A stretch of 64,000 bases of DNA from Nitrospirota bacterium (lineage in GTDB: Bacteria > Nitrospirota > Thermodesulfovibrionia > Thermodesulfovibrionales > Magnetobacteriaceae). The DNA is taken from positions 22,317 through 86,316 of the forward strand of contig JAMOAZ010000007.1 in NCBI GenBank assembly GCA_039908505.1, given 5' to 3'. The notes below the pieces were generated by a model. That model was not told the DNA's origin and searched no databases. It saw only the letters and a program-made list of their open reading frames with translations. Shown here one piece after another: positions 25,853-56,629 of the stretch (position 1 is its first letter; each line of letters begins with the position of its first letter). The position numbers and the translations under genes were made by a program.

Positions 25853-25884
25853 GCGGTGAAATAGCAAGACGAAGTACACAGGAG

Positions 25885-25921: not shown

Positions 25922-25955
25922 GGAGTCCGTAGCTTAAAAGAGAGTGGAGGATTTT

Positions 25956-27224
25956 ATGTCAGACGAGAAGGGTTCGGCCATCGTAGTAATAGGAGGTGGG
26001 ATAAGCGGGCTAACCACGGCGATAGAAGCGGCAGAAGCAGGCCAACGTTCGGTAATAGTGGAGAGAAATCCGTATTTGGGTGGAAGGGTAGCGCAGTTAA
26101 ACCGGTATTTCCCCAAGTTATGTCCGCCATACTGTGGATTAGAGGTAAATTTTAAGAGGATAAAGCAGAATCCCAAGATATCTGTTTATACGTCGGCAGA
26201 AATAGAAAGTGTTCAGGGAAGCGAAGGCAATTTTAAGGTTAAGATAAAAATCAATCCAAGATATGTAAATACCAAATGTACGGCATGTGGTGACTGTGTA
26301 AAGGTATGTCCTATAGAGAGAAGCAATAGTTTTAATTTTGGAATCGATAAGACAAAGGCGATATATCTGCCCCATGAGTTATCCTATCCAATGAGGTTTG
26401 TAATAGATGCCAGCCCTGGTGTATGTCCTGGAAAGTCATGTTCAAAATGCGTATCGGTTTGTAAGTATAATGCAATCGACCTTGATATGAAGGCAGAGAC
26501 AGTTGAGATAAATGCGTCAAGCGTTGTGTATGCAACAGGCTGGAGTCCGTATGATGCAGCGAAGATGGATAATCTTGGCTTTGGAAAGGTGAAAAACGTA
26601 GTAACCAATATGATGATGGAGCGCATGGCAGCGCCTAATGGCCCGACGAAAGGAAAAATTCTGAGGCCCTCGGACAACAAGCAGGTAAAAACGGTGGCGT
26701 TTGTGCAGTGTGCTGGCTCAAGAGACGAGAATCATCTGGCGCATTGTTCATCGGTGTGCTGCATGGCATCCCTAAAACAGGCTACGTATGTTAGGGAGAG
26801 CGACCCTGACACAAAGGCCTTTATATACTATATAGATTTGAGAGCGCCGGGGAGGTATGAAGACTTTTTGAAAAAGATTCAGGCCGACGCTAGCGTAATG
26901 ATGATAAAAGGTAAGGTAGCAAAGATAGAGGAAGACGCCGAGACTTTAGACCCCATCGTAACAGTGGAAGACATAACAGGTGGCAAAAAGATCACACAGA
27001 AAGTTGATATGGTTGTACTGGCAACGGGCATGGAGCCATCCTTGAAGACGGCAAATGTCAGCACAAACGTAAAACTGGACGAAAACGGCTTCGTCGATGC
27101 CGATGCACAAGCGGCAGGCATCTACGCTTCTGGGGTTGCCAAAAGGCCAAACGACGTTACAACGTCACTACAGGACGCCACTAGCGCGGCCTTGAAGGGC
27201 ATTCAATCCGCGGTGAGGAGGTAA
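25956..27224 (+). CDS. qmoA: QmoA (HdrA-like flavoprotein)
   Basis: IGGGISG FAD motif, YFPKLCPPYCGLE, FVQCAGSRDENHL..CS.VCC; start set at ATG 25956 after GGAGGA; follows aprA. Confidence 0.93.
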   Translation: MSDEKGSAIVVIGGGISGLTTAIEAAEAGQRSVIVERNPYLGGRVAQLNRYFPKLCPPYCGLEVNFKRIKQNPKISVYTSAEIESVQGSEGNFKVKIKINPRYVNTKCTACGDCVKVCPIERSNSFNFGIDKTKAIYLPHELSYPMRFVIDASPGVCPGKSCSKCVSVCKYNAIDLDMKAETVEINASSVVYATGWSPYDAAKMDNLGFGKVKNVVTNMMMERMAAPNGPTKGKILRPSDNKQVKTVAFVQCAGSRDENHLAHCSSVCCMASLKQATYVRESDPDTKAFIYYIDLRAPGRYEDFLKKIQADASVMMIKGKVAKIEEDAETLDPIVTVEDITGGKKITQKVDMVVLATGMEPSLKTANVSTNVKLDENGFVDADAQAAGIYASGVAKRPNDVTTSLQDATSAALKGIQSAVRR

Positions 27225-27227
27225 ACG

Positions 27228-29450: not shown

Positions 29451-29470
29451 AATAACAGGGAGGTATGCAC

Positions 29471-30640
29471 ATGGGTGATGCAGTGTTCACACCTGACATT
29501 GGGTTTGTTCGGGGCTTAAAGGAGGGCGGCGCCGACACTATGAAGCAGTGTTATCAGTGCGCGACGTGCTCTACGGTATGCGACCTGACACCGGCTGACA
29601 ACCCGTTTCCAAGAAAAGAGATGATAATGGCCCAGTGGGGGTTAAAGGAAGAGCTGTCGGCAGACCCGGACATCTGGCTTTGCCACAACTGTAACGACTG
29701 CTCAAAGTACTGTCCCCGCGGTGCAAGACCGGGTGATGTCTTATCGACATTGAGAAAGGCCGTAATAGCCGAGAACGCCTTCCCGAGGTTTATGGGCACG
29801 ATAGTGGGAAATGCAAAGCTGCTCTTAGTGGCGTTGTTGATTCCAGTGGCGCTGTTTCTTGCCTTGTTAAATGCCACCGGGCACTTAAACATACCGGCTG
29901 GCGATGTGGTCTTCAACAAATTTTTCCCGATTCCACTTGTCGATGCGATATTTGTAACGACGGCGATGTGTGTAGTGTTTGTGTTTGCTATAAGCGTGAG
30001 CAGGTTTTGGGGCAAACTCAATGTAAATCCATATAAGCTGATGGCACATAGTATGTTAATACCAAGTTTAATAGAGACCCTGAAGGAGATTGTATTTCAC
30101 AAGAAGTTTCAGAAATGCGGCGCTAATGCAGACAGGACGTGGACGCACAGGCTGATTGTAGCAGGGTTCATAGGTCTGTTCATACAGACAAACTGGGCGG
30201 TATTTAACTTGTATGTGCTGAAGTGGGAAACGCCGTTTCTGAAGGACGACCCAAATATGATGATGATTCTGGGGTCACAGGCAGCGGTGATGATGTACTA
30301 TGCGGTCTACAAGATATTCGGCAATACGAGTGCCCTGCTGTTGTTAATAGGGTCACTGATGCTGTTTGCCAATCGAATGAAGGACAAGGGTGTGAACAGC
30401 GTATCATCGTCTTTTGACTGGGTATTTGCGGTGATGGTGTTTTTGGTATGTATAACGGGGTTGCTGTCAGAGTTTTGCAGGTTTGCGAACAATGCACAGG
30501 TGGCCTATCCTATGTACTTTATTCATCTGGTATGCGTGTTTTACATAATAGCGTACCTGCCGTACTCGAAATTGGCGCACATGGTATATAGGACGACTGC
30601 GATTGTGTACGCGAAAATGGCAAATCGGGACGTAATGTAA
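29471..30640 (+). CDS. qmoC: QmoC (HdrC-like Fe-S domain + HdrE-like membrane cytochrome b)
   Basis: CYQCATCSTVC, WLCHNCNDCSKYCPRGARPGD, TM helices, YFIHLV, LPYSKLAHMVYR; ATG 29471 fits SD spacing better than 29465. Confidence 0.95.
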   Translation: MGDAVFTPDIGFVRGLKEGGADTMKQCYQCATCSTVCDLTPADNPFPRKEMIMAQWGLKEELSADPDIWLCHNCNDCSKYCPRGARPGDVLSTLRKAVIAENAFPRFMGTIVGNAKLLLVALLIPVALFLALLNATGHLNIPAGDVVFNKFFPIPLVDAIFVTTAMCVVFVFAISVSRFWGKLNVNPYKLMAHSMLIPSLIETLKEIVFHKKFQKCGANADRTWTHRLIVAGFIGLFIQTNWAVFNLYVLKWETPFLKDDPNMMMILGSQAAVMMYYAVYKIFGNTSALLLLIGSLMLFANRMKDKGVNSVSSSFDWVFAVMVFLVCITGLLSEFCRFANNAQVAYPMYFIHLVCVFYIIAYLPYSKLAHMVYRTTAIVYAKMANRDVM

Positions 30641-38165: not shown

Positions 38166-39659
38166 TTATTGAATAGCGTCTCTGGGTGGTATGGGCGTGT
38201 TTGCCCCGTCGTCATAGCGATCAACATCAAGCGTATAGCGCCTGAGGTTGTCAAAATCATGGTCGTCACCCTGCTTTACAGCGTTAGGCGCGGGTTTAAA
38301 ACCGCTAGCTGACACCGTTTTTGCTACTGTGTCCGCTATGGCGTTAACGATTAAGTCATAACCCTCCTTATTAAGATGGCAGCATGAGTCAATATATACC
38401 TGTGTTTTGACTGCTTTAAACATTAATGTCAAATCGGTGAAATTAACCCCCGCCTTATGCAGCCCCACACCCCCGGCACGCATATATGGAAACCCACGTT
38501 CGACTTCCTGCTTAAATGGGGATGATGTGGCAAGCGCCACTGATACCTCCTCTGCTGACAGAGGCTTGCTGCCAATAAAATATTGATTCGGCTGAAGAAA
38601 TTGAAAATACATACCCCCCTGATTTGCTATCAGGTTGTTTAACATAACAGAGCTTCTTTGCCAGTGCCTTACTATGTCGATATATAGGTCTCGTACCGTT
38701 TTATATTGCTGGTCAGTACCCAGGAACGCAGTCCCGCACTGTGTCGAACGTATCTTGTGAAGCTCACCTACATCGCCAGAGACTATGAGTTTTGTCAGCG
38801 CTGCCTCACTTGCCTCTTTCTTTTGCTTGGCTCCAGCATCGAGTACCTTCCACATCAGATTTCCTGTGGCTGTGTGGGAAGGCAGCCATGAGGAAAATAT
38901 TAAAGAGGCATCTGTTCGGCGTTTTTCAGCCAGCGCTATCATGGCCATGGCAATCTCCTGGTCTTTTGATATCTTTCTCTCCGTCAGGGTTCTCCAGCCG
39001 CGCGGGAAATGAAACGGTATACCGTCCTGAATGTTATGGTGGGCAAGTGGGAGGACTATTTCGTTAAATCCATCAAGGTTAATAAGAATGTCAAAATTGC
39101 CGCCCTGCGCGATGATGTCAGAGACGACATGCAGTTGTTGGGGTTGTTTGTATGCCAGACTTGCTATATTTATTAGTATCACCTTTCTGCCCTTAAACTC
39201 TGGAATTTCACTCAGGTGTTTTACCAGTGTATCTTCCGCCAGCACCGTCATAACTGTGGCTACCGAGCCACCCGTAACGCCGACCAACAAGTTCTGTTCA
39301 CTTCTTTGCTGCACGGGGTCATTTTTGCCAAAAAAGCCATACCTGTTTCTGTCGATTTTGATTTTATCGAGTCCGATGATGTTTTTAAGACGCTCATCAG
39401 GGATTTCATCCAGCACATAACCATAATACGGGTGTAACAGATGAAATAACTTGACAGCGGGTATGTTCATGTTGCCAGCATCCGTGCGCATGGATTTGAT
39501 TATACCATGTCGATCGTTTTCTAACTGCTCAAAAGACATCCACGACTTGTATATCACTCTGTATGTAACATAAGAGGACAGCTCAACAAAGGCAGTTACC
39601 GCTGATATTAAGATTGCGTAAAGCAGCGCCTGCCTTAGTGTTTTGTTTGATTGGGACAT
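38166..39659 (-). CDS. Membrane-anchored SGNH/GDSL-like hydrolase-fold protein
   Basis: N-terminal TM; GVTGGSVA, NLDGFNE, FLQPNQY, YIDSCCHLN (DxxH-like). Confidence 0.65.
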   Translation of the reverse strand: MSQSNKTLRQALLYAILISAVTAFVELSSYVTYRVIYKSWMSFEQLENDRHGIIKSMRTDAGNMNIPAVKLFHLLHPYYGYVLDEIPDERLKNIIGLDKIKIDRNRYGFFGKNDPVQQRSEQNLLVGVTGGSVATVMTVLAEDTLVKHLSEIPEFKGRKVILINIASLAYKQPQQLHVVSDIIAQGGNFDILINLDGFNEIVLPLAHHNIQDGIPFHFPRGWRTLTERKISKDQEIAMAMIALAEKRRTDASLIFSSWLPSHTATGNLMWKVLDAGAKQKKEASEAALTKLIVSGDVGELHKIRSTQCGTAFLGTDQQYKTVRDLYIDIVRHWQRSSVMLNNLIANQGGMYFQFLQPNQYFIGSKPLSAEEVSVALATSSPFKQEVERGFPYMRAGGVGLHKAGVNFTDLTLMFKAVKTQVYIDSCCHLNKEGYDLIVNAIADTVAKTVSASGFKPAPNAVKQGDDHDFDNLRRYTLDVDRYDDGANTPIPPRDAIQ

Positions 39660-40746: not shown

Positions 40747-42486
40747 ATGACTAAAGATACGACCCAAGATATCAAGATTTCGGCATATGCCGTTGTGATT
40801 GCTTTGTGCCAGGTCTTATACCTGCTAACATTTATTAACGGCGCATTCGGGGCTGTTGGGGGATATGATGACCCACTGAAACCACTTACCGATAAAACAG
40901 TCAAATTTTTTAACCCGCTCACACTAAAAGTTGATGCTGTCAAAGGCACTGCCCTCACCCTCAGAGGTGACACATCAGAAAAGGCCGTACCAGGTACCAG
41001 ATTTGAAATCTTCAGACAAGGCGCCATGTTCTATCACCCTGTCACGAACGAACCGCTTGGACATTTCGAGGACTTCATTGGCTCAATTGAGATAACAGGC
41101 GTAAAACCTGACGGCGAGACGGCGGCAAGTCTCATAAAAGGCACTCCAAAAAAAGGCGATATTGCACGCCTGTCTAAGTCAAAGATCAGGGCGCTGTTCT
41201 ACCAGGACAAGTCCATCGATTGGTTCCTCGGTGATGTTTACTACAGACAGCTCAAACAAAGCGGCCGCTTCGAGCTTATCGACACGGCTATAGATGCTGA
41301 AAACACCGCCGCACTGTTTGAGGAGGCAAAAAAGCTGGGCGCCGATGTGCTTATCCTGATTGAAGGCTCAAAAAAAGATGAGATCAGGGATGAGAACAAA
41401 TACCTGAAGCAGCGCATCTACTGGGTCTCTGATAAAAAGGAAGTGTCTTCAGATACCGTAGCAATATCAGAGACATATCTTCAGGATGTCATTGCTGCGG
41501 CAGACATATTCCTGTCCGCGATGAATGAACCGGTTCTTACGTATCGTATGCCCATTGGGTATGACCTGATGACAATAGGCAATATCAACGGCGGCAGTGA
41601 TGTGGACCTTATCTTCAGCACTGGCTCTGACCTTGCAGTTTACAAGCCCGGCGTTGATATGAACAAGATAATGGAACTCAAGGGTGACAAGATGAGCGAT
41701 AACGTATATATTGACGTTATAGATATAAACAAAGACGGCAGAGACGAAATCATAGTAACTGCAATGGCCTATGACGGCGCAAGGGCGTTTATCTATGGAG
41801 TTGAGGGCGGGCAGCTTAAGTTGTTGTGGAAGGCCAGCGGCTTTTTAAGGGTATATGGCAATAAACTCCTGTTTCAGCGCTACACCCCCAGAGAAGGACA
41901 AGTCGGCAATGTTGACTATATAGTTTGGGACAGCAATCATTTCAAAGAGGAAGGACAGTTAAAACTGCCATCCGGGGTTAATCTCTATGATTTTGTCTAT
42001 CTTGCACCCGCCGCAGAGGACGCTAAATCTGAACCCGTGACATTATTCTACGACAACGCTAACCACCTCGTTGTGAAGAACTCCGCCGGGACACGCATCT
42101 GGCGCAGCAAGGGCAGCATGGGCGGCTTTATCAGGGAGTACAATATCCCTGGCCCGACTATCATGGTAGAAGGAGGCAAGTGGCACATAAGCGACAAGAT
42201 GTTCCTGTATCATAAAAAAGGCATTGTTATCAGGAGAATCCCGTTTGCCCTGACCTCGGCGTCATTGGGTTATAAGAAATCATATATAATGAGCTACGGG
42301 TTTAACGGTATCTCAGTCGAAGAGAACACACTTGTCGGTGCGGTAGCTGGGAATATAATAGACTATACGATATACAAAGACAGGATTTATGTATTAGCAA
42401 GACCAATACTGGGGCTTAATCTGTCTGGGATGCTCAAGGGAGAAAACCCCCTTGTGACCAATCTGTTTATATATAAATTGTTATAG
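40747..42486 (+). CDS. Exported protein with FG-GAP/VCBS-like repeats
   Basis: N-terminal TM/signal; GNINGGSDVDLIF, IDINKDGRDEIIV; beta-rich C-terminal half. Confidence 0.7.
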   Translation: MTKDTTQDIKISAYAVVIALCQVLYLLTFINGAFGAVGGYDDPLKPLTDKTVKFFNPLTLKVDAVKGTALTLRGDTSEKAVPGTRFEIFRQGAMFYHPVTNEPLGHFEDFIGSIEITGVKPDGETAASLIKGTPKKGDIARLSKSKIRALFYQDKSIDWFLGDVYYRQLKQSGRFELIDTAIDAENTAALFEEAKKLGADVLILIEGSKKDEIRDENKYLKQRIYWVSDKKEVSSDTVAISETYLQDVIAAADIFLSAMNEPVLTYRMPIGYDLMTIGNINGGSDVDLIFSTGSDLAVYKPGVDMNKIMELKGDKMSDNVYIDVIDINKDGRDEIIVTAMAYDGARAFIYGVEGGQLKLLWKASGFLRVYGNKLLFQRYTPREGQVGNVDYIVWDSNHFKEEGQLKLPSGVNLYDFVYLAPAAEDAKSEPVTLFYDNANHLVVKNSAGTRIWRSKGSMGGFIREYNIPGPTIMVEGGKWHISDKMFLYHKKGIVIRRIPFALTSASLGYKKSYIMSYGFNGISVEENTLVGAVAGNIIDYTIYKDRIYVLARPILGLNLSGMLKGENPLVTNLFIYKLL

Positions 42487-46315: not shown

Positions 46316-46720
46316 ATGCCCGACATAATTGATATAAGGATATACTACGAGGACACTGACTGTGGCGGTGTGGTTTACTACGGCAAGTACCTGGGGTTTT
46401 TGGAGAGGGCGAGGACTGATTTCCTTGAAAAACGGGGGATAAAAATCCTTGACCTGATGAACGAGGGGATATATTTCGTCGTCGTAAGCGTAGATATCAG
46501 GTATCACAAACCGGCCAGATACGCTGACACAATAAACATCTATACAGAGATAGAAGAGATAACGTTCGCCTCAATAACCTTTGTGCATAAACTATACCTC
46601 AACGGCACACCACTATCTACCGCAAAAGTAAGACTGGCAACCGTCGGGGCACGACCAAACGAAACAGAACTTAAGCCAAGAAAAATGTCCAAAGACCTGA
46701 TTGAGGCGTTGAAAACCTAA
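46316..46720 (+). CDS. YbgC/FadM-family acyl-CoA thioesterase
   Basis: RIYYEDTDCGGVVYYGKYLGFLERART. Confidence 0.92.
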   Translation: MPDIIDIRIYYEDTDCGGVVYYGKYLGFLERARTDFLEKRGIKILDLMNEGIYFVVVSVDIRYHKPARYADTINIYTEIEEITFASITFVHKLYLNGTPLSTAKVRLATVGARPNETELKPRKMSKDLIEALKT

Positions 46721-46767
46721 TGAAAGGGGAAGACAGAAAGTCTGTTACAGTCAAAGCAGGAGACACA

Positions 46768-47094
46768 ATGGAATACTCAAGTTCTGGTCAATTTAATATC
46801 CCGAACACAACAAAAAATGAACTATTATCAAAACTCTCCTCAATACGCAGAGAGTTGCATGAGCGCTTCACGGTTGGGCGTATAGGCATATTCGGCTCAT
46901 ATGTCAGAGGCACTCAGCACCCTGACAGCGATATAGATGTCATCGTTGTGCTTGAAAGACCTACCTTTGATAATTACATGGAACTGAAGTTTCACCTTGA
47001 AGAGTTTCTTGGACAACCTGTTGATCTTGTGATGGCTGATACAGTCAAACCACGAATCAAGCCAGTTATTGAGCGGGAAGCCATTTATGTATAG
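46768..47094 (+). CDS. Minimal nucleotidyltransferase (MNT antitoxin)
   Basis: GIFGSYVRG....DSDIDV, LEEFLGQPVDLV; ATG 46768 follows AGGAG. Confidence 0.9.
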   Translation: MEYSSSGQFNIPNTTKNELLSKLSSIRRELHERFTVGRIGIFGSYVRGTQHPDSDIDVIVVLERPTFDNYMELKFHLEEFLGQPVDLVMADTVKPRIKPVIEREAIYV

Positions 47095-47377
47095 GGACTA
47101 TCGTTTATATTTAGAAGATATCCTTGAAGCAATAAGCCGGATTAAACAGTATACAAGAGGAAGGGATTACGAGAATTTCATTAGTGACACGAAAACTCAG
47201 GATGCTGTAGTACGAAACCTTGAAATCATTGGTGAAGCAGCAGGGCGATTACCTAAGTCATGCCTTCTGGCCGCTCCCGAAACACAATGGCGCAAAATCG
47301 TTGGCATTCGTAACATTCTCACTCATGAATATTTTGGGGTTTCCTTTCCAATCGTTTGGGATATTGTTCAAACCTAG
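47087..47377 (+). CDS. DUF86/HEPN toxin, apparently C-terminally truncated by an amber stop
   Basis: YLEDILEAI, DAVVRNLEIIGEA, RNILTHEY (R-x4-H); TAG at 47375, and the frame continues 16 codons to TAA 47426. Confidence 0.85.
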   Translation: MYRDYRLYLEDILEAISRIKQYTRGRDYENFISDTKTQDAVVRNLEIIGEAAGRLPKSCLLAAPETQWRKIVGIRNILTHEYFGVSFPIVWDIVQT

Positions 47378-47480: not shown

Positions 47481-48758
47481 GTGAAAAGGGTGGCTGTAAC
47501 AAGAAACATACATAGAAGGCTGATAACTCGTCTGCTTCTGGGCTGGGTTGTCTTGTCCATAGTACTTGGAGCGGTTGTGTATTTCATCAAGATAGCGGAG
47601 ATTGACGATCGTGTTACTGACCTTGCAATATCCGAATCCCTATTAATAATAAAAGACAAGCGGTATTTTTCCACACACCTGTCCGAAGCAGATTATAACT
47701 TATTGCGTCAAAATCTCAGGCAGCATATTGAAGACGGCAATTTCATTGTCCTCGAACTCTATACCTCAGAACATAAGAAACTCTTCGAGGTCTCCTCTGA
47801 AGACAAATCTGCAGTAGAGGCGCACGATAAATATATCGAACCGAAAGAAAAGCCTGTTCACTTTGCTGATAAACTCACCTATGTAAGGTTTTTCATACAC
47901 GGCCGTATCTACTTACAGTTTGTTGTGCCGCTATTTGACAGCAATAAAAAGAAATACGGCTATTTAGAGGGTATTTACCGTACAGACAACGAGGCAATGA
48001 GGGATATTAAAAATATTCTCATAGGCTCTTTACTCTTAGTAGTTGTGACGGTTCTTGTAACAGTGGCCATCTTTTATCCAATAATTATGTCGATGAACAA
48101 GGATTTGATAAAACTCACCGTTGACCTGTCAATCTCAAACATCGGGATGCTTGAGGCGTTGGGCAGCGCCATTGCCAAAAGGGACAGCGACACAAACAGC
48201 CACAACTACAGGGTTACTATTTATGCCGTCACGCTTGGAGCTGCGTTGGGCTTAAAAGATGATGAGATGCGAAGCCTAATTAAGGGCTCATTTCTCCACG
48301 ATATAGGGAAAATCGCCATATCTGACAATGTTTTACTAAAACCTAGCAAGCTCACTAAAGATGAGTTTGAGCATATGAAAAACCACACCATTCACGGCCT
48401 TGATATAGTAGGAAGATACGCATGGCTCAGAGAAGCGATAGATGTAGTGGTATACCATCACGAGAAATATGACGGAAGCGGCTATTCAGGACTTAAAGGG
48501 GAAGACATCCCGTTTAACGCAAGGGTCTTTGCGATAGCCGACGTATTTGACGCCCTAACGTCTAAACGTCCATATAAAGAACCATACTCTTATGAAAAGG
48601 CCATTGGGATACTAAAAGAAAACTCAGGGAAACACTTCGACGCAGGGCTGTTGGATGTCTTCATAGACCTGTCTATTGAATTGTTCGAAAAGATGGGCAA
48701 TGCAGATGACGAAATCCTTGAGAAAACCCTGGCTGAGCTGATACGTAAGTATTTCTAA
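47481..48758 (+). CDS. Membrane-bound HD-GYP domain protein (c-di-GMP phosphodiesterase-like)
   Basis: Two TMs flanking a periplasmic domain; HNYRV, LHDIGK, HHEKYDGSGY, IADVFDALTSKRPYK. Confidence 0.9.
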   Translation: MKRVAVTRNIHRRLITRLLLGWVVLSIVLGAVVYFIKIAEIDDRVTDLAISESLLIIKDKRYFSTHLSEADYNLLRQNLRQHIEDGNFIVLELYTSEHKKLFEVSSEDKSAVEAHDKYIEPKEKPVHFADKLTYVRFFIHGRIYLQFVVPLFDSNKKKYGYLEGIYRTDNEAMRDIKNILIGSLLLVVVTVLVTVAIFYPIIMSMNKDLIKLTVDLSISNIGMLEALGSAIAKRDSDTNSHNYRVTIYAVTLGAALGLKDDEMRSLIKGSFLHDIGKIAISDNVLLKPSKLTKDEFEHMKNHTIHGLDIVGRYAWLREAIDVVVYHHEKYDGSGYSGLKGEDIPFNARVFAIADVFDALTSKRPYKEPYSYEKAIGILKENSGKHFDAGLLDVFIDLSIELFEKMGNADDEILEKTLAELIRKYF

Positions 48759-48793: not shown

Positions 48794-50716
48794 CTACTGC
48801 AGATACAGGAAGTTCCTCGTGCTCTCATCGTAAGCGATGATGATACTGTCTTTGGGTTTGAGGTCCTTTAAAACATGTATCTCACTCTTCTTTTCCGGGA
48901 ACAATGTCTCTTCTATTTTAAATCTTACATTGGCCTTCTCAGGGTTTATCATGACCTCGTCATACACAAATACGGCAGAATCCCTTCTGATGCCACGAGG
49001 GTTGAATACCTTTGAGTATATCTCTTTTTGATTTACGGTAATGTCCACCTTGATAGGAGAGCGTTCGCTTGCCACAGATGGGGTTGACCTGTACTTAAAC
49101 GATAGAATGATAGCGCTTTTGTCTGTAGGATAAAATGCCATCTTGAAGTCTGTCAGCGGGAACAAAAGAATAACCGGTACGAGGAGCAGTATAGAGGAAA
49201 CGGCATAGTTCAGCTTGTTTAGTCCCTTTACAACAATCTTTTCCTGTTTTTTACCGCCTTGTATGTCCTTAATAAACGAATCTACCTCTGAAGTTATGTC
49301 TGTGGTAGATGTAGTCATCAATATTCTCACCCTCGATAGGTCTATATCCTGGTTAAGATATGGTTTTCTCTGCCTGCTGTACCGCTCAATAGTCCACCTG
49401 CTGCCTTCTCTGTATTGGCAGTCATCTTTTTCACAGCCCACAAGCAGCACTCCTTTCACCCCTGCGGCAAGCATATCTTTTGGGAAGTTGGGATGGACAG
49501 AGCCGATACATGGGACGGTATATGTTAATACGCTGCTTGTGGCGTTTGCCGCACTGGAACACAGCAGCACAACAAATTCAGGTGATTTTTCTTTTATCTC
49601 ATCAAGCATCGACTGCCACTGAAACCCTGGCATGGTAATCGATTTGAAGCTGCACGACCCTATACATATAGCGCAGCTTGCACATTTATTTTCATTAAGC
49701 ACAGACTTCATTTTTCCATCGAGAGTCCTGCTCATGATAACCGCCTCATATGGGCAGTCCATATAACAGCGCTCGCAACCTGTACATCTATCCTTGTCTA
49801 TCGTAACGACAGCCGGACGTAATCCCCTGATTATCCAAGGAAAAAGACATATGACAATGGTACCGACGCTTACAACAAGCCACATCGTAGAAAGCGGCAT
49901 CACCTTCATAAGCGGATATATGAAGAAATATGCCCAGTCAATTGAGATATCGAATGGTATTTTTGTGAGACTTGCCTCAGGGTCGCTCTTTGCAGAGAAA
50001 ACAATGCTTACAAGCACCAGATACACAGTAAGGCTTATCCACAGGTACCTTGGCGGCACAATCCTTGGCCTTGCGTTTCTCAGTACGTGTATCCACAAAA
50101 CAAACACAATGCCAATGGTCAGCGCCACGTGGAAGTACAGAATCATTCTGAACATACCGCCAAGCAGCTTAATATCAGAGCCAAAAAATGTACTCATTAT
50201 AGAGTGACCGAATATTGGCAGGTACGAAAGAAACTTGCCGGTAAGTATTCCGATAAGCTGTGCCTTGGTGTCCCACACAAGTATATAGCCGGAGATTCCT
50301 ATGATAAGAAAAATCCCAACCCCTAACAAGCCGGTAATCCAGGCCACCCACCTGTAGCTGCGAAAACGGTCTGTCACAAGTACATGCGCCATATGAGCAA
50401 TAGAGACAAATATTATACCGGCTGAGGTATACCTGTGCAGCCCGCGCATAATATTTCCAATAAAAGAATTAGAGATTGCCGTGACCGAGGAATAACAATA
50501 GCGTGGGTCTATCTTATAAAAAATATACAGATAAATCCCTGAGATTGTATCAAGGACAAGCAGAAAGATGGCAATTGCCCCCAGCCAGTAAAGCGGATTC
50601 AGTTCATAAGAAAACGCCTTGCTGAATGCTGTTGATAGTATATGATATAATCTCTGAAGTGTTGCTGTTTTTGAGTGTTCTTGTGCTGGATTATCCGCAT
50701 GTTTAGCTTTACTCAT
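48794..50716 (-). CDS. Cytochrome b/b6-like domain fused to a 2x[4Fe-4S] ferredoxin and an MvhD/FlpD-like domain
   Basis: Four heme His (RGLH, SIAH, LYFH, LWIH), ISGYILVWD; CTGCERCYMDCP and CASCAICIGSC; VPCIGSVHP..GVKGVLLVGCEKDDCQYREG. Confidence 0.88.
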   Translation of the reverse strand: MSKAKHADNPAQEHSKTATLQRLYHILSTAFSKAFSYELNPLYWLGAIAIFLLVLDTISGIYLYIFYKIDPRYCYSSVTAISNSFIGNIMRGLHRYTSAGIIFVSIAHMAHVLVTDRFRSYRWVAWITGLLGVGIFLIIGISGYILVWDTKAQLIGILTGKFLSYLPIFGHSIMSTFFGSDIKLLGGMFRMILYFHVALTIGIVFVLWIHVLRNARPRIVPPRYLWISLTVYLVLVSIVFSAKSDPEASLTKIPFDISIDWAYFFIYPLMKVMPLSTMWLVVSVGTIVICLFPWIIRGLRPAVVTIDKDRCTGCERCYMDCPYEAVIMSRTLDGKMKSVLNENKCASCAICIGSCSFKSITMPGFQWQSMLDEIKEKSPEFVVLLCSSAANATSSVLTYTVPCIGSVHPNFPKDMLAAGVKGVLLVGCEKDDCQYREGSRWTIERYSRQRKPYLNQDIDLSRVRILMTTSTTDITSEVDSFIKDIQGGKKQEKIVVKGLNKLNYAVSSILLLVPVILLFPLTDFKMAFYPTDKSAIILSFKYRSTPSVASERSPIKVDITVNQKEIYSKVFNPRGIRRDSAVFVYDEVMINPEKANVRFKIEETLFPEKKSEIHVLKDLKPKDSIIIAYDESTRNFLYLQ

Positions 50717-50750: not shown

Positions 50751-50766
50751 TATGATATATATCATA
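50751..50766. promoter_or_regulatory. Perfect 16-bp palindrome with an FNR/Dnr-like core between divergent genes
   Basis: TATGATATATATCATA contains TGAT-N4-ATCA. Confidence 0.35.
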
Positions 50767-50777
50767 GCATATGACAG

Positions 50778-52535
50778 GTGCTTCATTCTAAAATTAACGG
50801 GAAAAGGAGAATCTGCGTGTACACAACATTGACCAGAGTTTTTATCATCATTGCTGTCTTGTTCGGGTTGTTGACTTATGGGTCTGCAGATAATACTACC
50901 CTTTCAATAGCGCATATCAATGACACGCACAGTCATCTTGAACCATCCAACGTATCACTGACATATAACTCGAGCCCTTTTGTTGTGAGTGCCGGAGGAT
51001 TCCCCCTGATTACCAGTGCCATTTCTGCCCTCAGAGAATCCCGCCCTAACCTACTGTTGCTTCATGCAGGTGATGTGTTTACTGGAACTGTATTCTTTTC
51101 GAAATATCAGGGACTTGCCGACGTAGATTTCCTTAACGCGATGCACCTTGATGCCATGACAACGGGCAATCACGAATTCGACAAAGGGCCTTCAGTCCTT
51201 GCCGCATTTATCAAAAAGGCGACCTTCCCCGTAGTATCTGCAAACCTTGAAATATCTATGGAATCTCCGCTTTACAGCCTGATTAAACCCTATACAATCT
51301 TAGAGAAAAACGGCCGCAGGATAGGCATTGTCGGCCTTACAACCTCTGAGACGCCGTCCATATCCAAGCCAGGCAATTTGGTTAAGTTCAAAGATGTTGT
51401 AAAATCAGCCGAGGCAGCCGTCTCTGACCTAACCAGCCAGGACGTGAATATTATAATTATACTGTCACACATAGGCTATGAAAATGACCTTGAGCTTTCC
51501 CGCGCAGTACCAGGGGTGGATGTTATCGTAGGCGGGCATTCACATTCACTGTTGGGGGATGATACGCTGAGTCAGATTGGCCTTCAACCGGTTGGGCCAT
51601 ACCCGACAGAAGTACGTGGCACAGATAACTCTACCGTATTGATTGTCACGGCATGGGAGTTTGGAAAGATACTTGGCCATATGGATATCGATTTTGACGC
51701 TGACGGCAGGATTGTCTCATATCGGGGGAATCAGGCTGTTATCCTTCCGGAGGAACCGGAAAACAGGACGCCTGAGCTGGCAGAGTTTTATCAATCGACG
51801 GCAAACGGGAAGATTACCTCAAACCCGCGTTTTCAGTTAGTTAAGGCAGACCCCTCAGCAGCACTCAAACTCGATAAGTATAGCGCTCCTATTAAAGGCT
51901 TCATGAGCGGAACGGTTGCTTATGCCGAGGATACCCTTAAACGTGCGAACAATCAGGGGCCGGGGCCGATTATTGCCGACAGTATGCTCCAAAAAACTAC
52001 TGACTTAGGGGCTGATATTGCAATTATGAACTCCGGAGGTGTGCGAATTGACATGCCAAAGGGGAATATCTCAATAGCCGACGCCTACTCCCTCATGCCC
52101 TTTAACAATACGATATATGTCCTGAAGCTCAAAGGTCATCAGATAAAAGATGCCATAGAGTCAACCATAGAGTTTCAGATAAATAAAATGAAAAAACCTC
52201 CATTTGTATACGCCTCCGGCCTTAGATTTACTCTGGACATGTCAAAACCAGCAGGGGAGCGCGTCAAAGCCATGGAGGTAAAGGAACAGGGGACACAGAC
52301 ATATGTGCCAGTAAAAATGAATAGTTTTTACAAGATAGCCGTAAGCGAATACATTGCCAAAGGGGGCGACAATTTTATGTCCATACAGGGGACTGAGGCA
52401 GTTTCCCCGTTGAAGGCGGCAAGTTCTGCTGTTGATACAGGATTTGTAGACTCAGAGGTATTTATTGAATATATCAAGTCACAAAAAAGGCTGAAAAATC
52501 CAACCGAACAGAGGATTCGTATGATTAATAGATAA
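50778..52535 (+). CDS. Exported 5'-nucleotidase/UDP-sugar hydrolase
   Basis: HINDTHSH, LHAGDVFTG, GNHEFD, LSHIG, VGGHSH, NSGGVR, MPFNN, GGDNF. Confidence 0.93.
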   Translation: MLHSKINGKRRICVYTTLTRVFIIIAVLFGLLTYGSADNTTLSIAHINDTHSHLEPSNVSLTYNSSPFVVSAGGFPLITSAISALRESRPNLLLLHAGDVFTGTVFFSKYQGLADVDFLNAMHLDAMTTGNHEFDKGPSVLAAFIKKATFPVVSANLEISMESPLYSLIKPYTILEKNGRRIGIVGLTTSETPSISKPGNLVKFKDVVKSAEAAVSDLTSQDVNIIIILSHIGYENDLELSRAVPGVDVIVGGHSHSLLGDDTLSQIGLQPVGPYPTEVRGTDNSTVLIVTAWEFGKILGHMDIDFDADGRIVSYRGNQAVILPEEPENRTPELAEFYQSTANGKITSNPRFQLVKADPSAALKLDKYSAPIKGFMSGTVAYAEDTLKRANNQGPGPIIADSMLQKTTDLGADIAIMNSGGVRIDMPKGNISIADAYSLMPFNNTIYVLKLKGHQIKDAIESTIEFQINKMKKPPFVYASGLRFTLDMSKPAGERVKAMEVKEQGTQTYVPVKMNSFYKIAVSEYIAKGGDNFMSIQGTEAVSPLKAASSAVDTGFVDSEVFIEYIKSQKRLKNPTEQRIRMINR

Positions 52536-52634: not shown

Positions 52635-53396
52635 ATGAAAGGGAAAGCAGCAGTAATCGCAGCCATATTTGTTGCATTTATGGCTGTAGTAATGGGCGAG
52701 AGTTATGGCGCATCAGAGGCCGATGTCGGGCAAAAGGTATATGACAGAAGATGCGCATTCTGTCACGGGCGAAGTGGTAACGGCGATGGCACAGCGGAGT
52801 TTGTCTATAAGAAAGACAAGGGGAAAATCTGGAAGTTGTATCCGCGTGATTTTACACAGGGTGTTTACAGGTTCAGGTCAACGCAAACCGGAAGCCTGCC
52901 TACTGACGAAGACCTCATGCGCATATTGACTGTAGGCATTCCACGCTCAAGTATGCCAGCAACAAATGACCTGTCAGACATGGAGAAAAAAGCGGTAATA
53001 GCATACCTCAAGACCTTGTCAAGGAGATGGAAAGACGAACAGCCCGGAGTATCAATCTCTGTAGCTGCAAAGCCAGATTGGGTTGGCACGCCGGAGTCAG
53101 TGGAAAAAGGCGCACAGGTGTGGAAGGAGATGAAGTGCTGGGAGTGCCATGGTGAAAGGGGCAAGGGTGACGGTCCAAAATCAATGGACATTAAAGATGA
53201 CCAAAAAAGGCCAATTCTTCCGTTTGACTTCACAATTGGCGCTCTAAAAAGAGGCACTACGGACAAAGATATCTATCTGGCGTACACAACCGGTCTTGAC
53301 GGTACGGGAATGCCTTCATATGAAGACTCACTCGATGAGGAGAAGCGCTGGCATCTGGTGTCTTATACATTAAAACTAATGGGAAAGATAAAATAA
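52635..53396 (+). CDS. Exported diheme c-type cytochrome
   Basis: Signal peptide; CAFCH and CWECH; PRDFT, MP axial-ligand motifs. Confidence 0.92.
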   Translation: MKGKAAVIAAIFVAFMAVVMGESYGASEADVGQKVYDRRCAFCHGRSGNGDGTAEFVYKKDKGKIWKLYPRDFTQGVYRFRSTQTGSLPTDEDLMRILTVGIPRSSMPATNDLSDMEKKAVIAYLKTLSRRWKDEQPGVSISVAAKPDWVGTPESVEKGAQVWKEMKCWECHGERGKGDGPKSMDIKDDQKRPILPFDFTIGALKRGTTDKDIYLAYTTGLDGTGMPSYEDSLDEEKRWHLVSYTLKLMGKIK

Positions 53397-53414: not shown

Positions 53415-53588
53415 ATGGCAGAAGAACCGGCAGGATTCATACAGAAGTTACTTGATAATCCCATAGGACTGTTGATACTTTCAAACGCAGTATTACTGGT
53501 TGTCTACTTTTTATGGGGATTATATAAGATAGAGACAATAGGTCCAATTCCTACTGCGCTGAAAGAAATAATATTAGGAGGTAAGTAA
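53415..53588 (+). CDS. Small single-TM subunit of the heme-copper complex (subunit IIa/III-like)
   Basis: One hydrophobic helix; GGGAGG SD; stop abuts the subunit II start. Confidence 0.7.
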   Translation: MAEEPAGFIQKLLDNPIGLLILSNAVLLVVYFLWGLYKIETIGPIPTALKEIILGGK

Positions 53589-53589: not shown

Positions 53590-54120
53590 ATGGCACTAAC
53601 CGCACCAGAAAAAGGATGGTGGCATAAAAAGGTATCGAGCGACGAAAAGACGTGGGTAATATTTGCAGCAATCGTTGCGCTGTCTCTCTTTATGTTAATG
53701 GTTGCATGGCATTTACTGGGTAAACAAAACCCATCGTATATCGTCTATTCAACATCACCCGATGAGTTCTATAAACTAGCCCAGGCAAACTGGGAAAAAT
53801 ACAAAGTTGGCGAAGAGTCCGGTATTCCGGTTGTGAAGCCGCCTGCAGACAGCGATGTGTTTATTCTTGCTTCTACATGGAAATGGGAGCCGGTCTTAGT
53901 ACTCAAAAAAGGCGCGAACTACAGATTTCATGTATCTTCAATGGATCTCCTGCACGGCTTTTCCATACAACCTGTGAATATGAATTTTGCTATTCACCCG
54001 GGGTATGACTATGTTCTAACGTTCAAACCGACATCCAGCGGCGATTTCAGGTTAGTCTGCAATGAGTACTGCGGGCCTGGGCATCATGCAATGATTGGAA
54101 AAATAAAAGTTGAAGACTAA
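53590..54120 (+). CDS. Heme-copper superfamily subunit II, B-family-type, CuA-containing
   Basis: Single TM; DLLHGF and CNEYCGPGHHAM CuA ligands. Confidence 0.93.
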   Translation: MALTAPEKGWWHKKVSSDEKTWVIFAAIVALSLFMLMVAWHLLGKQNPSYIVYSTSPDEFYKLAQANWEKYKVGEESGIPVVKPPADSDVFILASTWKWEPVLVLKKGANYRFHVSSMDLLHGFSIQPVNMNFAIHPGYDYVLTFKPTSSGDFRLVCNEYCGPGHHAMIGKIKVED

Positions 54121-54138
54121 GATGAAGGAGGATTTAAG

Positions 54139-55818
54139 ATGTCTTTTTTAAAATGCGATATCACTGGGTTTAACGTAGACAAACGCGTGTTACCCTTGAT
54201 AAAAGCAAACGCGGTGGTTTCTGTGGTTTCCCTTCTTTTAGCCGTACTAACCGCCATGCTGGTGCTTTTTACAAGGTGGCAGGTCGTTCATCTGCTACCG
54301 GTTGACTGGTATTACAGGATACTTACGCTGCATGGATTAGTGGCGCTTGTGGTGTGGATAGTGTTTTGGGAGATGGCTGGGCTTTATTTTGGCTCTACAA
54401 TAGTGTTGAACGCACGGCAGGTTGCACCCGGGGTGGGATGGCTTGCCTTTGTGCTCATGGTAGTGGGGACGGCACTGGTTTCCTTTGCGGTTTTAACCGG
54501 CAGGGCAGACGTGCTTTTCACCTCATACGTGCCGCTTAAGGCAAATCCAATTCATTATCTTGGTATAATACTCTTTGCAGTTGGCGCCCTAATTGTTTGT
54601 GGACTGTTTTTTGCAAATATTATCACAGCCAAAAAGGAAAAGACCTATGGTGACGGGCCGCTTCCCCTGTTCAGTTTTGGTTTGCTTACGGCAGCGATTT
54701 TGGCTGTCGGTACGCTATTGTCAGGAGCCGCTATTTATGTGCCAGTATTTCTCTGGTCATTAGGTTTAATCCAGTCTGTGGACAGTATTGTTTACAGGGT
54801 GGTATTTTGGGGCTTCGGGCATTCCGCCCAGCAGGTTAATGTTGCTGCGATGATATCGATATGGTATCTTGGGGCATTTCTCACAGTCGGCGGCACGTCT
54901 ATAAACGAGAGGGTAAGCAGGATGGCGTTCTTGTTTTATATGATTGGTATAAATCTCGCATCGGCTCACCATCTGCTTGTTGACCCGATTCCATCACCGG
55001 CATGGAAGATAGTAAACACCAGTTATTTTATGTATCTGGCCGTCCTTGCCTCTATGATACACGCCTTTGCAGTACCATCGGCGATTGAGGTTGCTCAGAG
55101 GAGGAGGGGGTATACAAAGGGACTGTTTGACTGGCTTAAGAACTGTCCATGGGGAAATCCAGCCTTTGTTGCGGTCTTTTTGGCCGTAGTTACCTTTGGA
55201 TTCATCGGAGGTATTACCGGTGTCATCAACGGTATGGAGCAGACCAACATGGTAGTTCATAATACGCTGGCGATTCCAGGTCATTTCAAAGGCACAGTAG
55301 TAAGCGGAACGACGCTTACGTTTATGGGTGCTACGTACTATCTGATTCCGCTTATATTCAGGAAAAAGATATCGTTCTTTGGTGTGGCCAAGGCGGCACC
55401 GTGGTTATTTGCAATCGGCATCGTGCTGCTTTCTGCCGGACTCTCTACGCTTGGTTATCTTGGAGTACCGAGGAGACATTGGGATACAACATTTTCCGGT
55501 GGGCCGTTTACCTACACATATCCTCCGATTGCGGACTTTTTATGGGTAGTAGCGGTAATTGGCGGCGTGATAGCATTCTTGGGTGCTATGGCATGGATTT
55601 TAGTAGTGGTTATTTCTGTATTTTTCGGAAAGCCGGTTACAGGGCCGGTAGACATGCAGCTGCCACTGGCTTCACCGCTTCCACCTGAGACTAAGTCACA
55701 TGAGTCAAAATTCGTTGCCCCGGGGACATTCGCGCTCACAATTATATTTATGTTAGCGTTTTTGATCTTTGCAACTATAAACTGGGGATGGTTAAGCATG
55801 ATGTGGGAGGTCAAGTAG
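54139..55818 (+). CDS. Heme-copper superfamily subunit I, B-family-derived; probable eNOR-type nitric oxide reductase
   Basis: H65; H228 in FWGFGHSAQQ with Gln232 at the Tyr cross-link position; H277-H278; H382-F-K384. Confidence 0.8.
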   Translation: MSFLKCDITGFNVDKRVLPLIKANAVVSVVSLLLAVLTAMLVLFTRWQVVHLLPVDWYYRILTLHGLVALVVWIVFWEMAGLYFGSTIVLNARQVAPGVGWLAFVLMVVGTALVSFAVLTGRADVLFTSYVPLKANPIHYLGIILFAVGALIVCGLFFANIITAKKEKTYGDGPLPLFSFGLLTAAILAVGTLLSGAAIYVPVFLWSLGLIQSVDSIVYRVVFWGFGHSAQQVNVAAMISIWYLGAFLTVGGTSINERVSRMAFLFYMIGINLASAHHLLVDPIPSPAWKIVNTSYFMYLAVLASMIHAFAVPSAIEVAQRRRGYTKGLFDWLKNCPWGNPAFVAVFLAVVTFGFIGGITGVINGMEQTNMVVHNTLAIPGHFKGTVVSGTTLTFMGATYYLIPLIFRKKISFFGVAKAAPWLFAIGIVLLSAGLSTLGYLGVPRRHWDTTFSGGPFTYTYPPIADFLWVVAVIGGVIAFLGAMAWILVVVISVFFGKPVTGPVDMQLPLASPLPPETKSHESKFVAPGTFALTIIFMLAFLIFATINWGWLSMMWEVK

Positions 55819-55822: not shown

Positions 55823-56629
55823 TTGAAGAGATTTCTCCTGACAGTTTACGTGGCTTTTACTGTCCTTACTGGCAGCGTCTGTGGCTATGGAGAGAAACTC
55901 ACATCGCCTAACGAGAAAGAGACGCTGGGCAAAGCAGTACCCAACGTAAGACTGTTTGACTCCTACGGCAAAGAGCGCACCATGATGGAAATAGTAGGGG
56001 GCAAACCCCTTATTATATCCATTATTTACACAAGGTGTGAGACGGCGTGCATTGTCATCACCGACGCTCTTACGTCAGTTGTTGAGAAGATGGGAGATAT
56101 TGGAAAGAACTATAATGTCCTTAGTCTCTCGTTTGACCCTTCGGACACACCAGAGATGCTGGCAAAGTTCAGGACGACATGGGGGCTTAACGCAACCGGA
56201 TGGATAGTTGCAAGCGGTCAGGACAGTGAATTGAAAAGGCTGCTGAGTGCAATTGGATTTTCGTATAAACTTGACAAGGGGACGGGTGAGTTCATTCATC
56301 CCAACCTCCTTGTCATACTTACCCCTGATGGCAGGATATCGAGATATATCTACGGCGTGAACTATGATGACAAGAATCTGAAATTGACTCTGTTAGACGC
56401 CAAAAGGGGCACTTCGACATTGAGCGTTATGGAAGGGGTGCTACTCTGGTGCTATCAATATGACCCTGTGACTGGTGCATATACCTTTGATTGGCCATTT
56501 TTACTTGAGCTCATAAGCGGGATTGCCTTTTTTATGTCCCTGTTATTTTTTTTCTTTGCCAAAAAAGTAGTCAGCTGTTTACGTAAATTTGCTGGTTCTA
56601 TGATTGAACAGAAAAGTCTGTCAGAATAG
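55823..56629 (+). CDS. SCO-family copper chaperone
   Basis: YTRCETAC (CxxxC), SLSFDPSDTP, FIHP, C-terminal TM. Confidence 0.92.
   Translation: MKRFLLTVYVAFTVLTGSVCGYGEKLTSPNEKETLGKAVPNVRLFDSYGKERTMMEIVGGKPLIISIIYTRCETACIVITDALTSVVEKMGDIGKNYNVLSLSFDPSDTPEMLAKFRTTWGLNATGWIVASGQDSELKRLLSAIGFSYKLDKGTGEFIHPNLLVILTPDGRISRYIYGVNYDDKNLKLTLLDAKRGTSTLSVMEGVLLWCYQYDPVTGAYTFDWPFLLELISGIAFFMSLLFFFFAKKVVSCLRKFAGSMIEQKSLSE

Follow-up and report, generated by a model that had tools for sequence, protein, structure and literature searches.

What does a cytochrome b that has no Rieske partner and carries fused iron-sulfur (Fe-S) domains do next to the genes of eNOR, a nitric oxide (NO) reductase? The question is raised by a 64,000-nt stretch of DNA, called the window throughout (contig JAMOAZ010000007.1, positions 22,317-86,316 of the forward strand, assembly GCA_039908505.1), from a Nitrospirota bacterium of the Magnetobacteriaceae. 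A first-pass annotation had described the gene as a cytochrome b fused to ferredoxin and MvhD domains and had proposed that its product is a single-chain link from cytoplasmic Fe-S partners to the quinone pool or a periplasmic diheme cytochrome c, supplying electrons to the NO reductase. Judging from sequence, we give a probability of about one half to the reading that the fusion protein would be a dedicated electron-transfer subunit of eNOR, a module that resembles complex III, lacks a Rieske protein and has cytochrome b6/subunit IV as its scaffold. The gene and the parts of its product, in window coordinates, are:

48794..50716, minus strand: fusion gene, cytochrome b - ferredoxin - MvhD - transmembrane helix - beta-sandwich, 640 amino acids in a single intact open reading frame (ORF) (ORF list, Pfam, AlphaFold2)
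49829..50620, minus strand: di-heme cytochrome b core, residues 33-296 (profile, Foldseek, invariant residues)
49631..49810, minus strand: 2x[4Fe-4S] ferredoxin domain, predicted cytoplasmic, residues 303-362 (Pfam Fer4 families, profile, invariant Cys)
49259..49576, minus strand: MvhD/FlpD-type [2Fe-2S] domain, predicted cytoplasmic, residues ~381-486 (Pfam PF02662, profile, QmoB alignment)
49151..49207, minus strand: seventh transmembrane helix, predicted to take the chain back to the periplasm, residues 504-522 (AlphaFold2; basic residues before the helix)
48797..49147, minus strand: C-terminal beta-sandwich, predicted periplasmic, residues 524-640 (AlphaFold2)

We modelled the whole protein with AlphaFold2 and an alignment of 80 family sequences, which also served for all residue counts given here, and the model reached a predicted local distance difference test score (pLDDT) of 93.4 and a predicted template modelling score (pTM) of 0.91. 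Cytochrome_B of Pfam matched residues 33-212 (E=1.4e-10), the family profile had cytochrome b6 as its best match (E=6e-40) followed by bc1 cytochrome b, and the top Foldseek matches of the whole model were bc1 cytochrome b chains. All NCBIfam matches were sub-threshold (ExtP-type cytochrome b, cytochrome b6 and the C-terminal 200 residues of HdrA2, residues 569-769), so the fusion protein lies outside any curated equivalog. The core consists of helices A (41-66), B (85-114), C (120-147), D (182-212), E (223-239) and F (275-295), after which the chain enters the ferredoxin domain; the model has no helices G and H, and Pfam Cytochrom_B_C found no match in the protein. The His that ligate the two hemes (H94, H108, H196 and H210) do not vary in the alignment. 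One search returned 393 homologues and another gave 337 representative clusters (50% identity, E<=1e-30), and the family is therefore far from a chance assembly; none of the RNA runs that were searched for the window sequence contained it.

The reading IDWAY at the position of the PEWY motif, claimed in the first-pass annotation, held up. The window protein has I259-D260-W261-A262, then Y263, and a profile of the helix E-F region (19 sequences) matched b6f subunit IV with E=1.8e-5 and aligned its 'lDWf' to 'PEWY', while the same segment, used as a single sequence, had no match among PDB sequences. Across the alignment the Qo motif is hydrophobic-D-W-F, with Asp in 77/80 and Trp in 76/80 sequences; its first position is hydrophobic throughout and is Pro in none of the 80. 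In the cd-loop, W148 is present in 75/80 sequences and D149 is invariant. The position of the Cys that binds heme cn in b6 holds Trp, His or Tyr in the family; in the fusion protein itself Trp replaces b6 Cys35, so no heme cn is expected, and a heme-cn-type Qi site was rejected because the ligand Cys is absent.

The cytoplasmic module was supported by Pfam, where 4Fe-4S dicluster families covered residues 303-362, and by the alignment, which between them confirmed the two 4Fe-4S motifs and the MvhD Cys set that had been read from the sequence together with the heme ligands. The two CxxCxxCxxxC motifs (C311/314/317/321 and C345/348/351/355) are invariant in the 80 sequences, as are C386, C403 and C428 of the MvhD domain, whereas C433 is found in 75/80. 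FlpD/MvhD (PF02662) covers residues 390-485 with E=1.2e-12 and 48.4 bits, against a cut-off of 22.3. The ferredoxin part of the profile matched the C-terminal ferredoxin domain of HdrA (5odc_A residues 575-649), and the MvhD part matched the MvhD chains 5odc_D and 8rvu_F. As the ferredoxin domain starts only eight residues past helix F in the model, it would lie beside heme bH. The claim that this module is shared with the C-terminus of QmoB was also borne out, by 26% identity over 164 amino acids (E=3e-12) to the QmoB encoded in the window at 27228-29450. The common part is the C-terminal ferredoxin-MvhD module alone, the FAD-binding thioredoxin-reductase-like domain of QmoB and HdrA being absent from the fusion protein, and on sequence grounds we take the similarity as homology of the module and not as genomic linkage.

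To the b, ferredoxin and MvhD domains, which the first-pass annotation had listed correctly, the AlphaFold2 model adds two parts that it had overlooked, the seventh helix (504-522) and a beta-sandwich of eight strands and about 115 amino acids (pLDDT 87 for the domain). Standard cytochrome b topology would place the Fe-S domains in the cytoplasm and the beta-sandwich in the periplasm, and the orientation of helix 7 is supported by the basic residues that precede it, following the positive-inside rule. The beta-sandwich of the window protein contains no Cys and no metal motif, has no family in Pfam, and gave no PDB match at E<1e-3 in a fold search. Generic beta-sandwiches (TssJ, CBM41/20, the HGSNAT luminal domain) appeared with E>1e-3 and TM scores below 0.45, and no functional inference was drawn from them.

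We assembled 2 sets of loci to examine the surroundings of the gene. The target-centred set came from a scan of one genome per GTDB species, which gave at least 597 relatives; the best 80 were taken with 10-kb flanks and, with 6 loci from exact-protein look-ups, make 86 loci. The eNOR-centred set comprises 80 contigs from a metagenome scan seeded with eNOR subunit I, and the Rieske-motif and beta-sandwich counts refer to 166 related loci. A neighbour was called eNOR subunit I when tblastn found at least 45% identity to the subunit I of the window within 10 kb; all co-occurrence counts come from tblastn, the ORF-based gene clusters 11, 12 and 15 being antisense ORFs in high-GC loci. Individual loci are designated by L numbers.

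Linkage to eNOR was found in both directions. Subunit I lies within 10 kb of the fusion gene in 73 of the 86 target-centred loci, and in 8 of the other 13 the contig ends at the gene or at most 2.2 kb upstream of it, one of them still showing subunit II. The informative exceptions are the 2 loci of Ca. Magnetobacterium (L003 and L004), L036, L046 and L083, the last of which has a Tyr-type oxidase as its neighbour. Conversely, 48 of the 80 eNOR-centred contigs carry the fusion gene, and among those with at least 6 kb on both sides the proportion is 17/18. Co-occurrence among informative loci thus amounts to about 94% in both directions, and the proposed linkage survived this check. The eNOR signature H-x3-Q plus HH was present in 64 neighbouring oxidases in the alignment of related loci. 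In the eNOR-centred set the fusion gene was operonic and downstream in 23 cases and divergent and upstream in 23.

Most often the genes for subunit II and subunit I come first, then optionally one for a heme O synthase or for a paralog resembling a heme-copper oxidase (HCO), then Sco1 and the fusion gene. Sco1 is directly upstream of the fusion gene in most relatives and often overlaps it (median gap -2 bp, 49/61 on the same strand). In at least 10 phyla the fusion gene accompanies the genes for eNOR subunits II and I and for Sco1; carriers were found in Nitrospirota, Aquificota, Bacteroidota (Chitinophagaceae) and Alpha-, Beta-, Gamma- and Deltaproteobacteria, and further ones in Nitrospinota, Rokubacteria, Gemmatimonadota, Actinomycetota and Chloroflexota. 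The closest relatives, Ca. Magnetominusculus (80% identity) and a Nitrospirota contig (58%), have the divergent layout of the window, and on the other flank of the latter contig lie nirS, nirJ, nirF and an HCO-like paralog. Among the neighbouring genes are nirS and nirJ; nos genes, Crp/Fnr and Rrf2 regulators and heme A synthase turn up repeatedly. Gene-family clustering of the 86 target-centred loci showed no Mvh hydrogenase, Hdr, Qmo or Apr genes among the conserved neighbours. The suggested connection of sulfur and NO metabolism through Qmo or Hdr was consequently rejected for want of synteny, the sat-aprBA-qmoABC genes of the window being about 20 kb away, and the HdrA- or QmoA-type partner that had been proposed has domain homology in its favour and no synteny.

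The strict Rieske motif (CxHxGC...CxxH, all six frames) is absent from the window, as had been stated, Pfam scans of the larger ORFs of the window, which did not take in every ORF, detected no Rieske family, and the motif occurs in the flanks of 2 of the 166 related loci, one of them belonging to a separate petB-like gene. The dedicated Rieske partner that would have made this an ordinary bc complex was thus not encountered in the 64 kb of the window. The beta-sandwich was detected by a hidden Markov model in 105/166 loci, fused in 59 and as a separate ORF in 46, the separate ORF standing directly downstream of a short-form fusion gene. This recurrence, fused or split, makes the beta-sandwich an integral part of the system. 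It probably docks at the periplasmic face where the Rieske head would sit, or on eNOR subunit II.

Fused and split variants extend the same picture. In 3 cluster representatives of 745-769 amino acids, a class-I cytochrome c domain (CxxCH) follows the beta-sandwich, one of these forms sits in a COX2-COX1-fusion-Sco1-Sco1-PCuAC cluster, and in all three the Qo Trp is changed to Val or Pro. A Polaromonas paralog has plant-type 2Fe-2S, FAD-binding and NAD-binding domains in place of ferredoxin-MvhD and is followed by a split beta-sandwich ORF. Cytochrome c is a free gene in the window, is fused to subunit II in Chitinophagaceae or is fused to the fusion protein itself, and such migrating modules are typical of successive members of one electron-transfer chain. 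The AlphaFold2 model, the cytochrome c-fused members and the paralog with its FNR-like module all fit the proposal of a single chain running from cytoplasmic Fe-S to the periplasm.

In the window, the fusion gene does lie near the eNOR genes, but it is divergent from them and a 5'-nucleotidase gene stands between. The features of this region, in order from the fusion gene, are:

50752..50765, no strand: ATGATATATATCAT, a perfect palindrome that lies 36-49 bp ahead of the start codon of the fusion gene
50778-52535, plus strand: 5'-nucleotidase/NadN-like gene with sub-threshold SoxB similarity, between the fusion gene and the eNOR genes
52635..53396, plus strand: periplasmic diheme cytochrome c, first of the eNOR genes (Pfam Cytochrom_C and Cytochrome_CBB3, two stretches)
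53415..53588, plus strand: 57-amino-acid single-helix membrane ORF, directly 5' of subunit II (read from sequence)
53590..54120, plus strand: eNOR subunit II with a CuA site (H...CNEYCGPGHHAM) (translation; weak COX2 and CoxB matches)
54139..55818, plus strand: eNOR subunit I (GHSAQQ, HH, GHFK) (translation; COX1 E=3e-59)
55823..56629, plus strand: SCO1/SenC copper chaperone (Pfam E=5.5e-12)

In GHSAQQ of subunit I, Gln occupies the position of the cross-linked Tyr of oxidases, an exchange that is diagnostic of eNOR (PMC8756737), and the three His metal ligands are kept. GHFK makes Lys the second axial ligand of the low-spin heme; among 87 aligned neighbouring oxidases this ligand is Lys in 28 and His in 59, and His/Lys ligation is reported for some eNORs (PMC11214002). 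Subunit II is of cupredoxin type with a complete CuA motif. By these signature motifs and its CuA subunit II, the oxidase encoded at 53590-55818 can be classified as an eNOR. NO reductase activity and heme As have been shown biochemically for the R. marinus eNOR only (PMC11214002).

The diheme cytochrome c keeps its position in L169 (Ca. Magnetominusculus LBB02) and L170 and is a candidate carrier from the fusion protein to CuA. The 57-amino-acid ORF has no Pfam match, but ORFs of 57-61 amino acids occupy the same place in L169, L170, L001 and L005 (Nitrospirota, Aquificota, Chitinophagaceae), and it may be an unannotated small eNOR subunit. The 5'-nucleotidase gene is present in L169, is absent from L170 and from the other phyla, and looks like a lineage-specific insertion.

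In the electron wire that we propose, a flavoprotein or ferredoxin docked on the MvhD domain would be the reductant, NAD(P)H taking this role in the paralog with the FNR-like module, and electrons would run from the [2Fe-2S] cluster through the two [4Fe-4S] clusters, heme bH, heme bL, a Qo-type pocket, cytochrome c and CuA to the eNOR active site. The six-helix core with its two b hemes would span the membrane, and a quinone would sit at the retained Qo-type pocket between heme bL and the periplasmic cytochrome c, where it might alternatively act, in bound form, as the relay from heme bL to the periplasmic acceptor; quinol could be a second point of electron entry. The near-obligate pairing with the eNOR structural genes, as well as the migration of cytochrome c modules among the fusion protein, subunit II and a free gene, argue that the periplasmic end would feed cytochrome c and the CuA of eNOR. 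At the other end, the MvhD cluster of Mvh-Hdr (5ODC) is the partner-facing end of the same two-domain module. Outward flow, from the cytoplasm to eNOR, seems to us the likeliest direction, though at less than even odds. It is favoured since it is the downhill direction, since the FNR-like paralog is of a type that usually oxidises NAD(P)H, and since di-heme b wires of this kind are established in NADPH oxidases (NOX), ferric reductases and MsrQ-Fre, where cytoplasmic electrons cross the membrane via two b hemes.

Several points weigh against a dedicated donor working in this way. An ordinary bc1 complex or alternative complex III, together with a cytochrome c, could serve a CuA-type eNOR, so that a private donor is not strictly required, and the purified R. 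marinus eNOR reduces NO with artificial donors (PMC11214002). A wire from low-potential Fe-S to cytochrome c would be wasteful of energy. The conserved Asp-Trp of the Qo site argues, from sequence, that quinol chemistry matters, and a plain wire would leave this conservation unexplained. Finally, in Ca. Magnetobacterium (L003 and L004) the fusion gene is not beside eNOR.

Quinol bifurcation would account for the pocket. One electron would pass to cytochrome c, CuA and eNOR and the other through bL, bH and the Fe-S clusters to ferredoxin or NAD(P)+, and with eNOR the fusion protein would form a Rieske-less quinol-bifurcating supercomplex making reduced ferredoxin or NAD(P)H. We regard both the chemistry and the supercomplex as unlikely, although this is the main rival reading: conservation of the Qo Asp and Trp reaches about 95% and extends to W148 and D149 of the cd-loop, and the low-potential chain extends into the cytoplasm, where it ends in a partner-docking MvhD or FNR-like module. 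Many of the carriers (for instance Aquificota, Nitrospirota and Gallionellaceae) are autotrophs in need of reduced ferredoxin or NADH, bifurcation has been put forward for the Ferrigenium genes (bioRxiv 10.64898/2026.01.22.701106), and similar thinking has been applied to anammox Rieske/cytochrome b complexes (abstract of PMC12954380). However, no Rieske or other cofactor is placed to take the first electron, the beta-sandwich having neither Cys nor metal motif, and reduction of Fe-S or NAD+ from heme bH would be steeply uphill and against the membrane potential. Moreover, the family is equally common in heterotrophs (Chitinophagaceae, Rhodospirillales) and the Qo Trp is lost from the cytochrome c-fused variants. 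FNR-like modules with an N-terminal 2Fe-2S domain, for their part, usually run from NAD(P)H to an acceptor, which speaks for the opposite direction.

The remaining explanations keep parts of the evidence and leave others aside. The position of the fusion gene directly after sco1, often overlapping it, the operons with heme O synthase, heme A synthase, PCuAC and an HCO-like paralog without metal ligands, and the UbiA-family gene that abuts the fusion gene in Magnetobacterium and Magnetominusculus could all point to a carrier of cytoplasmic reducing equivalents to the eNOR assembly machinery in the periplasm or membrane, serving for example CuA loading by Sco1/PCuAC or the conversion of heme O to heme A. 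Two hemes and three Fe-S clusters would be heavy equipment for reducing a thiol or copper, though, and oxidases with CuA or heme a otherwise do without a factor of this kind; the presence of the gene is also tied more tightly to eNOR subunits I and II than to ctaA (8/87 loci) or ctaB (17/87), and the fusions with cytochrome c and FNR-like modules suggest steady-state electron flow, all of which makes a maturation factor doubtful. A redox loop directed inwards, similar to NarI-NarH, from periplasmic quinol through the b hemes to a cytoplasmic acceptor such as an NO- or O2-handling di-iron protein, and merely co-regulated with eNOR, would agree with a P-side quinol pocket, transmembrane hemes and a cytoplasmic Fe-S chain, as well as with the hemerythrin gene that follows the fusion gene in 22 proteobacterial loci. 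It appears improbable, as no gene for a cytoplasmic acceptor is conserved across the family or found in the window, and such a loop would leave the periplasmic beta-sandwich and the fused cytochrome c without a function and the near-obligate eNOR pairing without an explanation. Least of all do we expect an ordinary bc-type complex with its Rieske subunit encoded elsewhere: the cytochrome b fold and heme ligands are canonical and our view of the genome is 64 kb, but helices G and H are replaced by the fused Fe-S domains, Pro is missing from the Qo motif in all of the 80 sequences, the Rieske motif is confined to the 2 loci mentioned above, and Kao and Hunte likewise found no Rieske in such clusters (PMC4122944).

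The reading of the protein as an electron-transfer subunit of eNOR can be set against the systems that it resembles. With b6f (b6 plus subunit IV) and bc1 it has in common the fold, four bis-His ligands on helices B and D, the W-D of the cd-loop and the ef-loop motif aligned to PEWY, and with bc1 the spacing of 13 residues between the His in both helices. It differs in having helices A-F, against 8 helices in bc1 and 4+3 in b6 plus subunit IV, in lacking a Rieske partner, in the Fe-S domains fused at its cytoplasmic end and in a Qo motif that is hydrophobic-D-W-F/A in the family and not P-E/D-W-Y. A functional analogy is offered by SoxC of the Sulfolobus SoxABCD quinol oxidase, which Luebben et al. 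are said to have described in 1992. SoxC is reportedly a cytochrome b homologue that does without a Rieske protein, is the subunit through which electrons enter a heme-copper enzyme, and has its gene in the operon of that enzyme. Both are Rieske-less cytochrome b homologues encoded with heme-copper subunits, but SoxC has no Fe-S or MvhD domains, and the enzyme that it supplies reduces O2 and has a subunit II devoid of CuA.

The cytoplasmic half has its counterparts in the C-terminal ferredoxin plus MvhD of HdrA (Mvh-Hdr, PDB 5ODC) and in the C-termini of HdrA2 and QmoB, all of which share its two-domain Fe-S module. Within Mvh-Hdr the module passes electrons one at a time between a flavoprotein and a partner enzyme, whereas the fusion protein has no FAD domain, carries the module on a membrane cytochrome and shows no synteny with hydrogenase, Hdr or Qmo. 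In NADPH oxidases, ferric reductases and MsrQ-Fre, electrons from a cytoplasmic donor of FNR-like or flavin type cross a six-helix di-heme b domain and reach an acceptor that is periplasmic or external. The Polaromonas paralog, with cytochrome b, 2Fe-2S, FAD and NAD domains, repeats this layout; the NOX and MsrQ-Fre proteins differ in their unrelated ferric-reductase membrane fold and have neither Fe-S clusters nor a quinone pocket.

The fusion itself is not new. The protein belongs to the PDWF-FeS clade of cytochrome b, described in 2014 by Kao and Hunte (PMC4122944) as having cytochrome b, 4Fe-4S and MvhD in this order and no Rieske in the cluster; the window protein has the same three parts, a Qo site of the D-W-F type and a cluster without Rieske, its first Qo residue being other than Pro. 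That paper listed three sequences, assigned neither a function nor a genomic partner, and noted a sister form in Alicycliphilus with ferredoxin and flavin oxidoreductase; it contains nothing of the eNOR linkage, the seventh helix, the fused or split beta-sandwich or the cytochrome c-fused forms. A preprint of 2026 (bioRxiv 10.64898/2026.01.22.701106) reported cytochrome b and Fe-S genes in the eNOR operon of Ferrigenium straubiae, called them 'rather unusual' and possible Ferrigenium markers, suggested a quinol:NAD+ oxidoreductase and a supercomplex, and detected the proteins in the denitrifying proteome. Here, in contrast, such genes accompany eNOR in Nitrospirota, Aquificota, Bacteroidota, Proteobacteria, Nitrospinota, Rokubacteria, Gemmatimonadota and others. 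The main text of PMC11214002 makes no mention of such cytochrome b/Fe-S genes. Our literature search found no biochemical or genetic study and no report of pan-phylum eNOR linkage; the first-pass annotation was therefore right that no biochemistry is known, while the architecture and its presence in an eNOR operon had already been described in the 2 works just cited. What is added here is the reciprocal pan-phylum eNOR linkage, helix 7, the fused-or-split beta-sandwich, the cytochrome c-fused forms and a conserved operator.

The operator in question lies in the divergent intergenic region of 61 bp upstream of the fusion gene. ATGAT-N4-ATCAT occurs in exact form once in the window, where 0.14 copies are expected, and is found 36-60 bp upstream of the orthologue in L003, L004, L169 and L170 (Nitrospirota), being kept in Ca. 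Magnetobacterium although eNOR is not adjacent there. From its sequence it looks like a candidate Crp/Fnr-family operator. A scan for the FNR box TTGAT-N4-ATCAA that allowed up to 2 mismatches showed no enrichment in the window (37 hits versus 43 expected) and no conservation in Aquificota intergenic regions. Additional copies of ATGAT-N4-ATCAT were seen in the divergent intergenic region of Aquificota nos clusters (L001/L002/L009/L013, ~18517-18563), between divergent fusion and eNOR genes in L121 (6421) and upstream of the fusion gene in L036 (4074). This distribution hints at the site of a shared denitrification regulator.

Three further genes recur in related loci. An HCO subunit-I paralog of 425-530 amino acids, which keeps the heme His and the H..Q, has Phe after the Gln (H..QF) and has lost the HH ligands, is present in 21 loci, including L001 (6191-7468) and L170 (10900-12306), and absent from the window; the 'eNOR scaffold protein of unknown function' named in the Ferrigenium preprint is probably this paralog. 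The hemerythrin (PF01814, 133 amino acids), encoded on the same strand after the fusion gene or after the split beta-sandwich ORF in the 22 proteobacterial loci (e.g. L064, 12124-12528), could be an O2/NO-binding partner or sensor. The UbiA-family gene, heme O synthase-like, is convergent with the fusion gene in L003/L004 (11981-13815) and L169 (10928-11830), even without an adjacent eNOR.

Elsewhere in the window, a complete sat - aprB - aprA - qmoA - qmoB - qmoC cluster lies at 22056-30640 on the plus strand, followed by a gene for a CxxCxxCC-domain protein, and a DsrE-like gene lies at 4990-5403. The sat-apr-qmo and DsrE genes and the 80% match to Ca. Magnetominusculus suggest the genome of a sulfur-cycling magnetotactic Nitrospirota. 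Overlapping genes for an MntA-like nucleotidyltransferase and a HepT-like RNase, a type VII toxin-antitoxin system (46720-47377, plus strand), stand just upstream of an HD_5/HD-GYP-type gene (47481-48758, plus strand) that is convergent with the fusion gene and 35 bp from its stop codon. The product of the latter has a sub-threshold match to the 'NosR family' cyclic di-GMP phosphodiesterase response regulator (NF053512, with 112 bits where the cut-off is 400). At the thresholds used, Pfam found no match for the ORFs at 8231-10720 (minus strand, 829 amino acids), 40747-42486 (plus strand, 579 amino acids) and 38166-39659 (minus strand, 497 amino acids).

With 2,709 metagenome hits, eNOR is among the most abundant N2O-forming enzymes in environmental data (PMC11214002), and the fusion protein is an obvious candidate for its physiological electron donor. 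It could account for the supply of electrons to eNOR where an organism has no suitable bc1 chain and could change estimates of the energy gained from NO reduction. If the bifurcating supercomplex were true, the very high potential of NO reduction would pay for a low-potential reductant, which would give denitrification a new mode of energy coupling and the Qo reaction a second use, independent of the first. The family also offers a natural experiment, a cytochrome b Qo pocket without a Rieske protein, and it has cultured and partly tractable carriers in Magnetospirillum magneticum AMB-1 and Hydrogenobacter.

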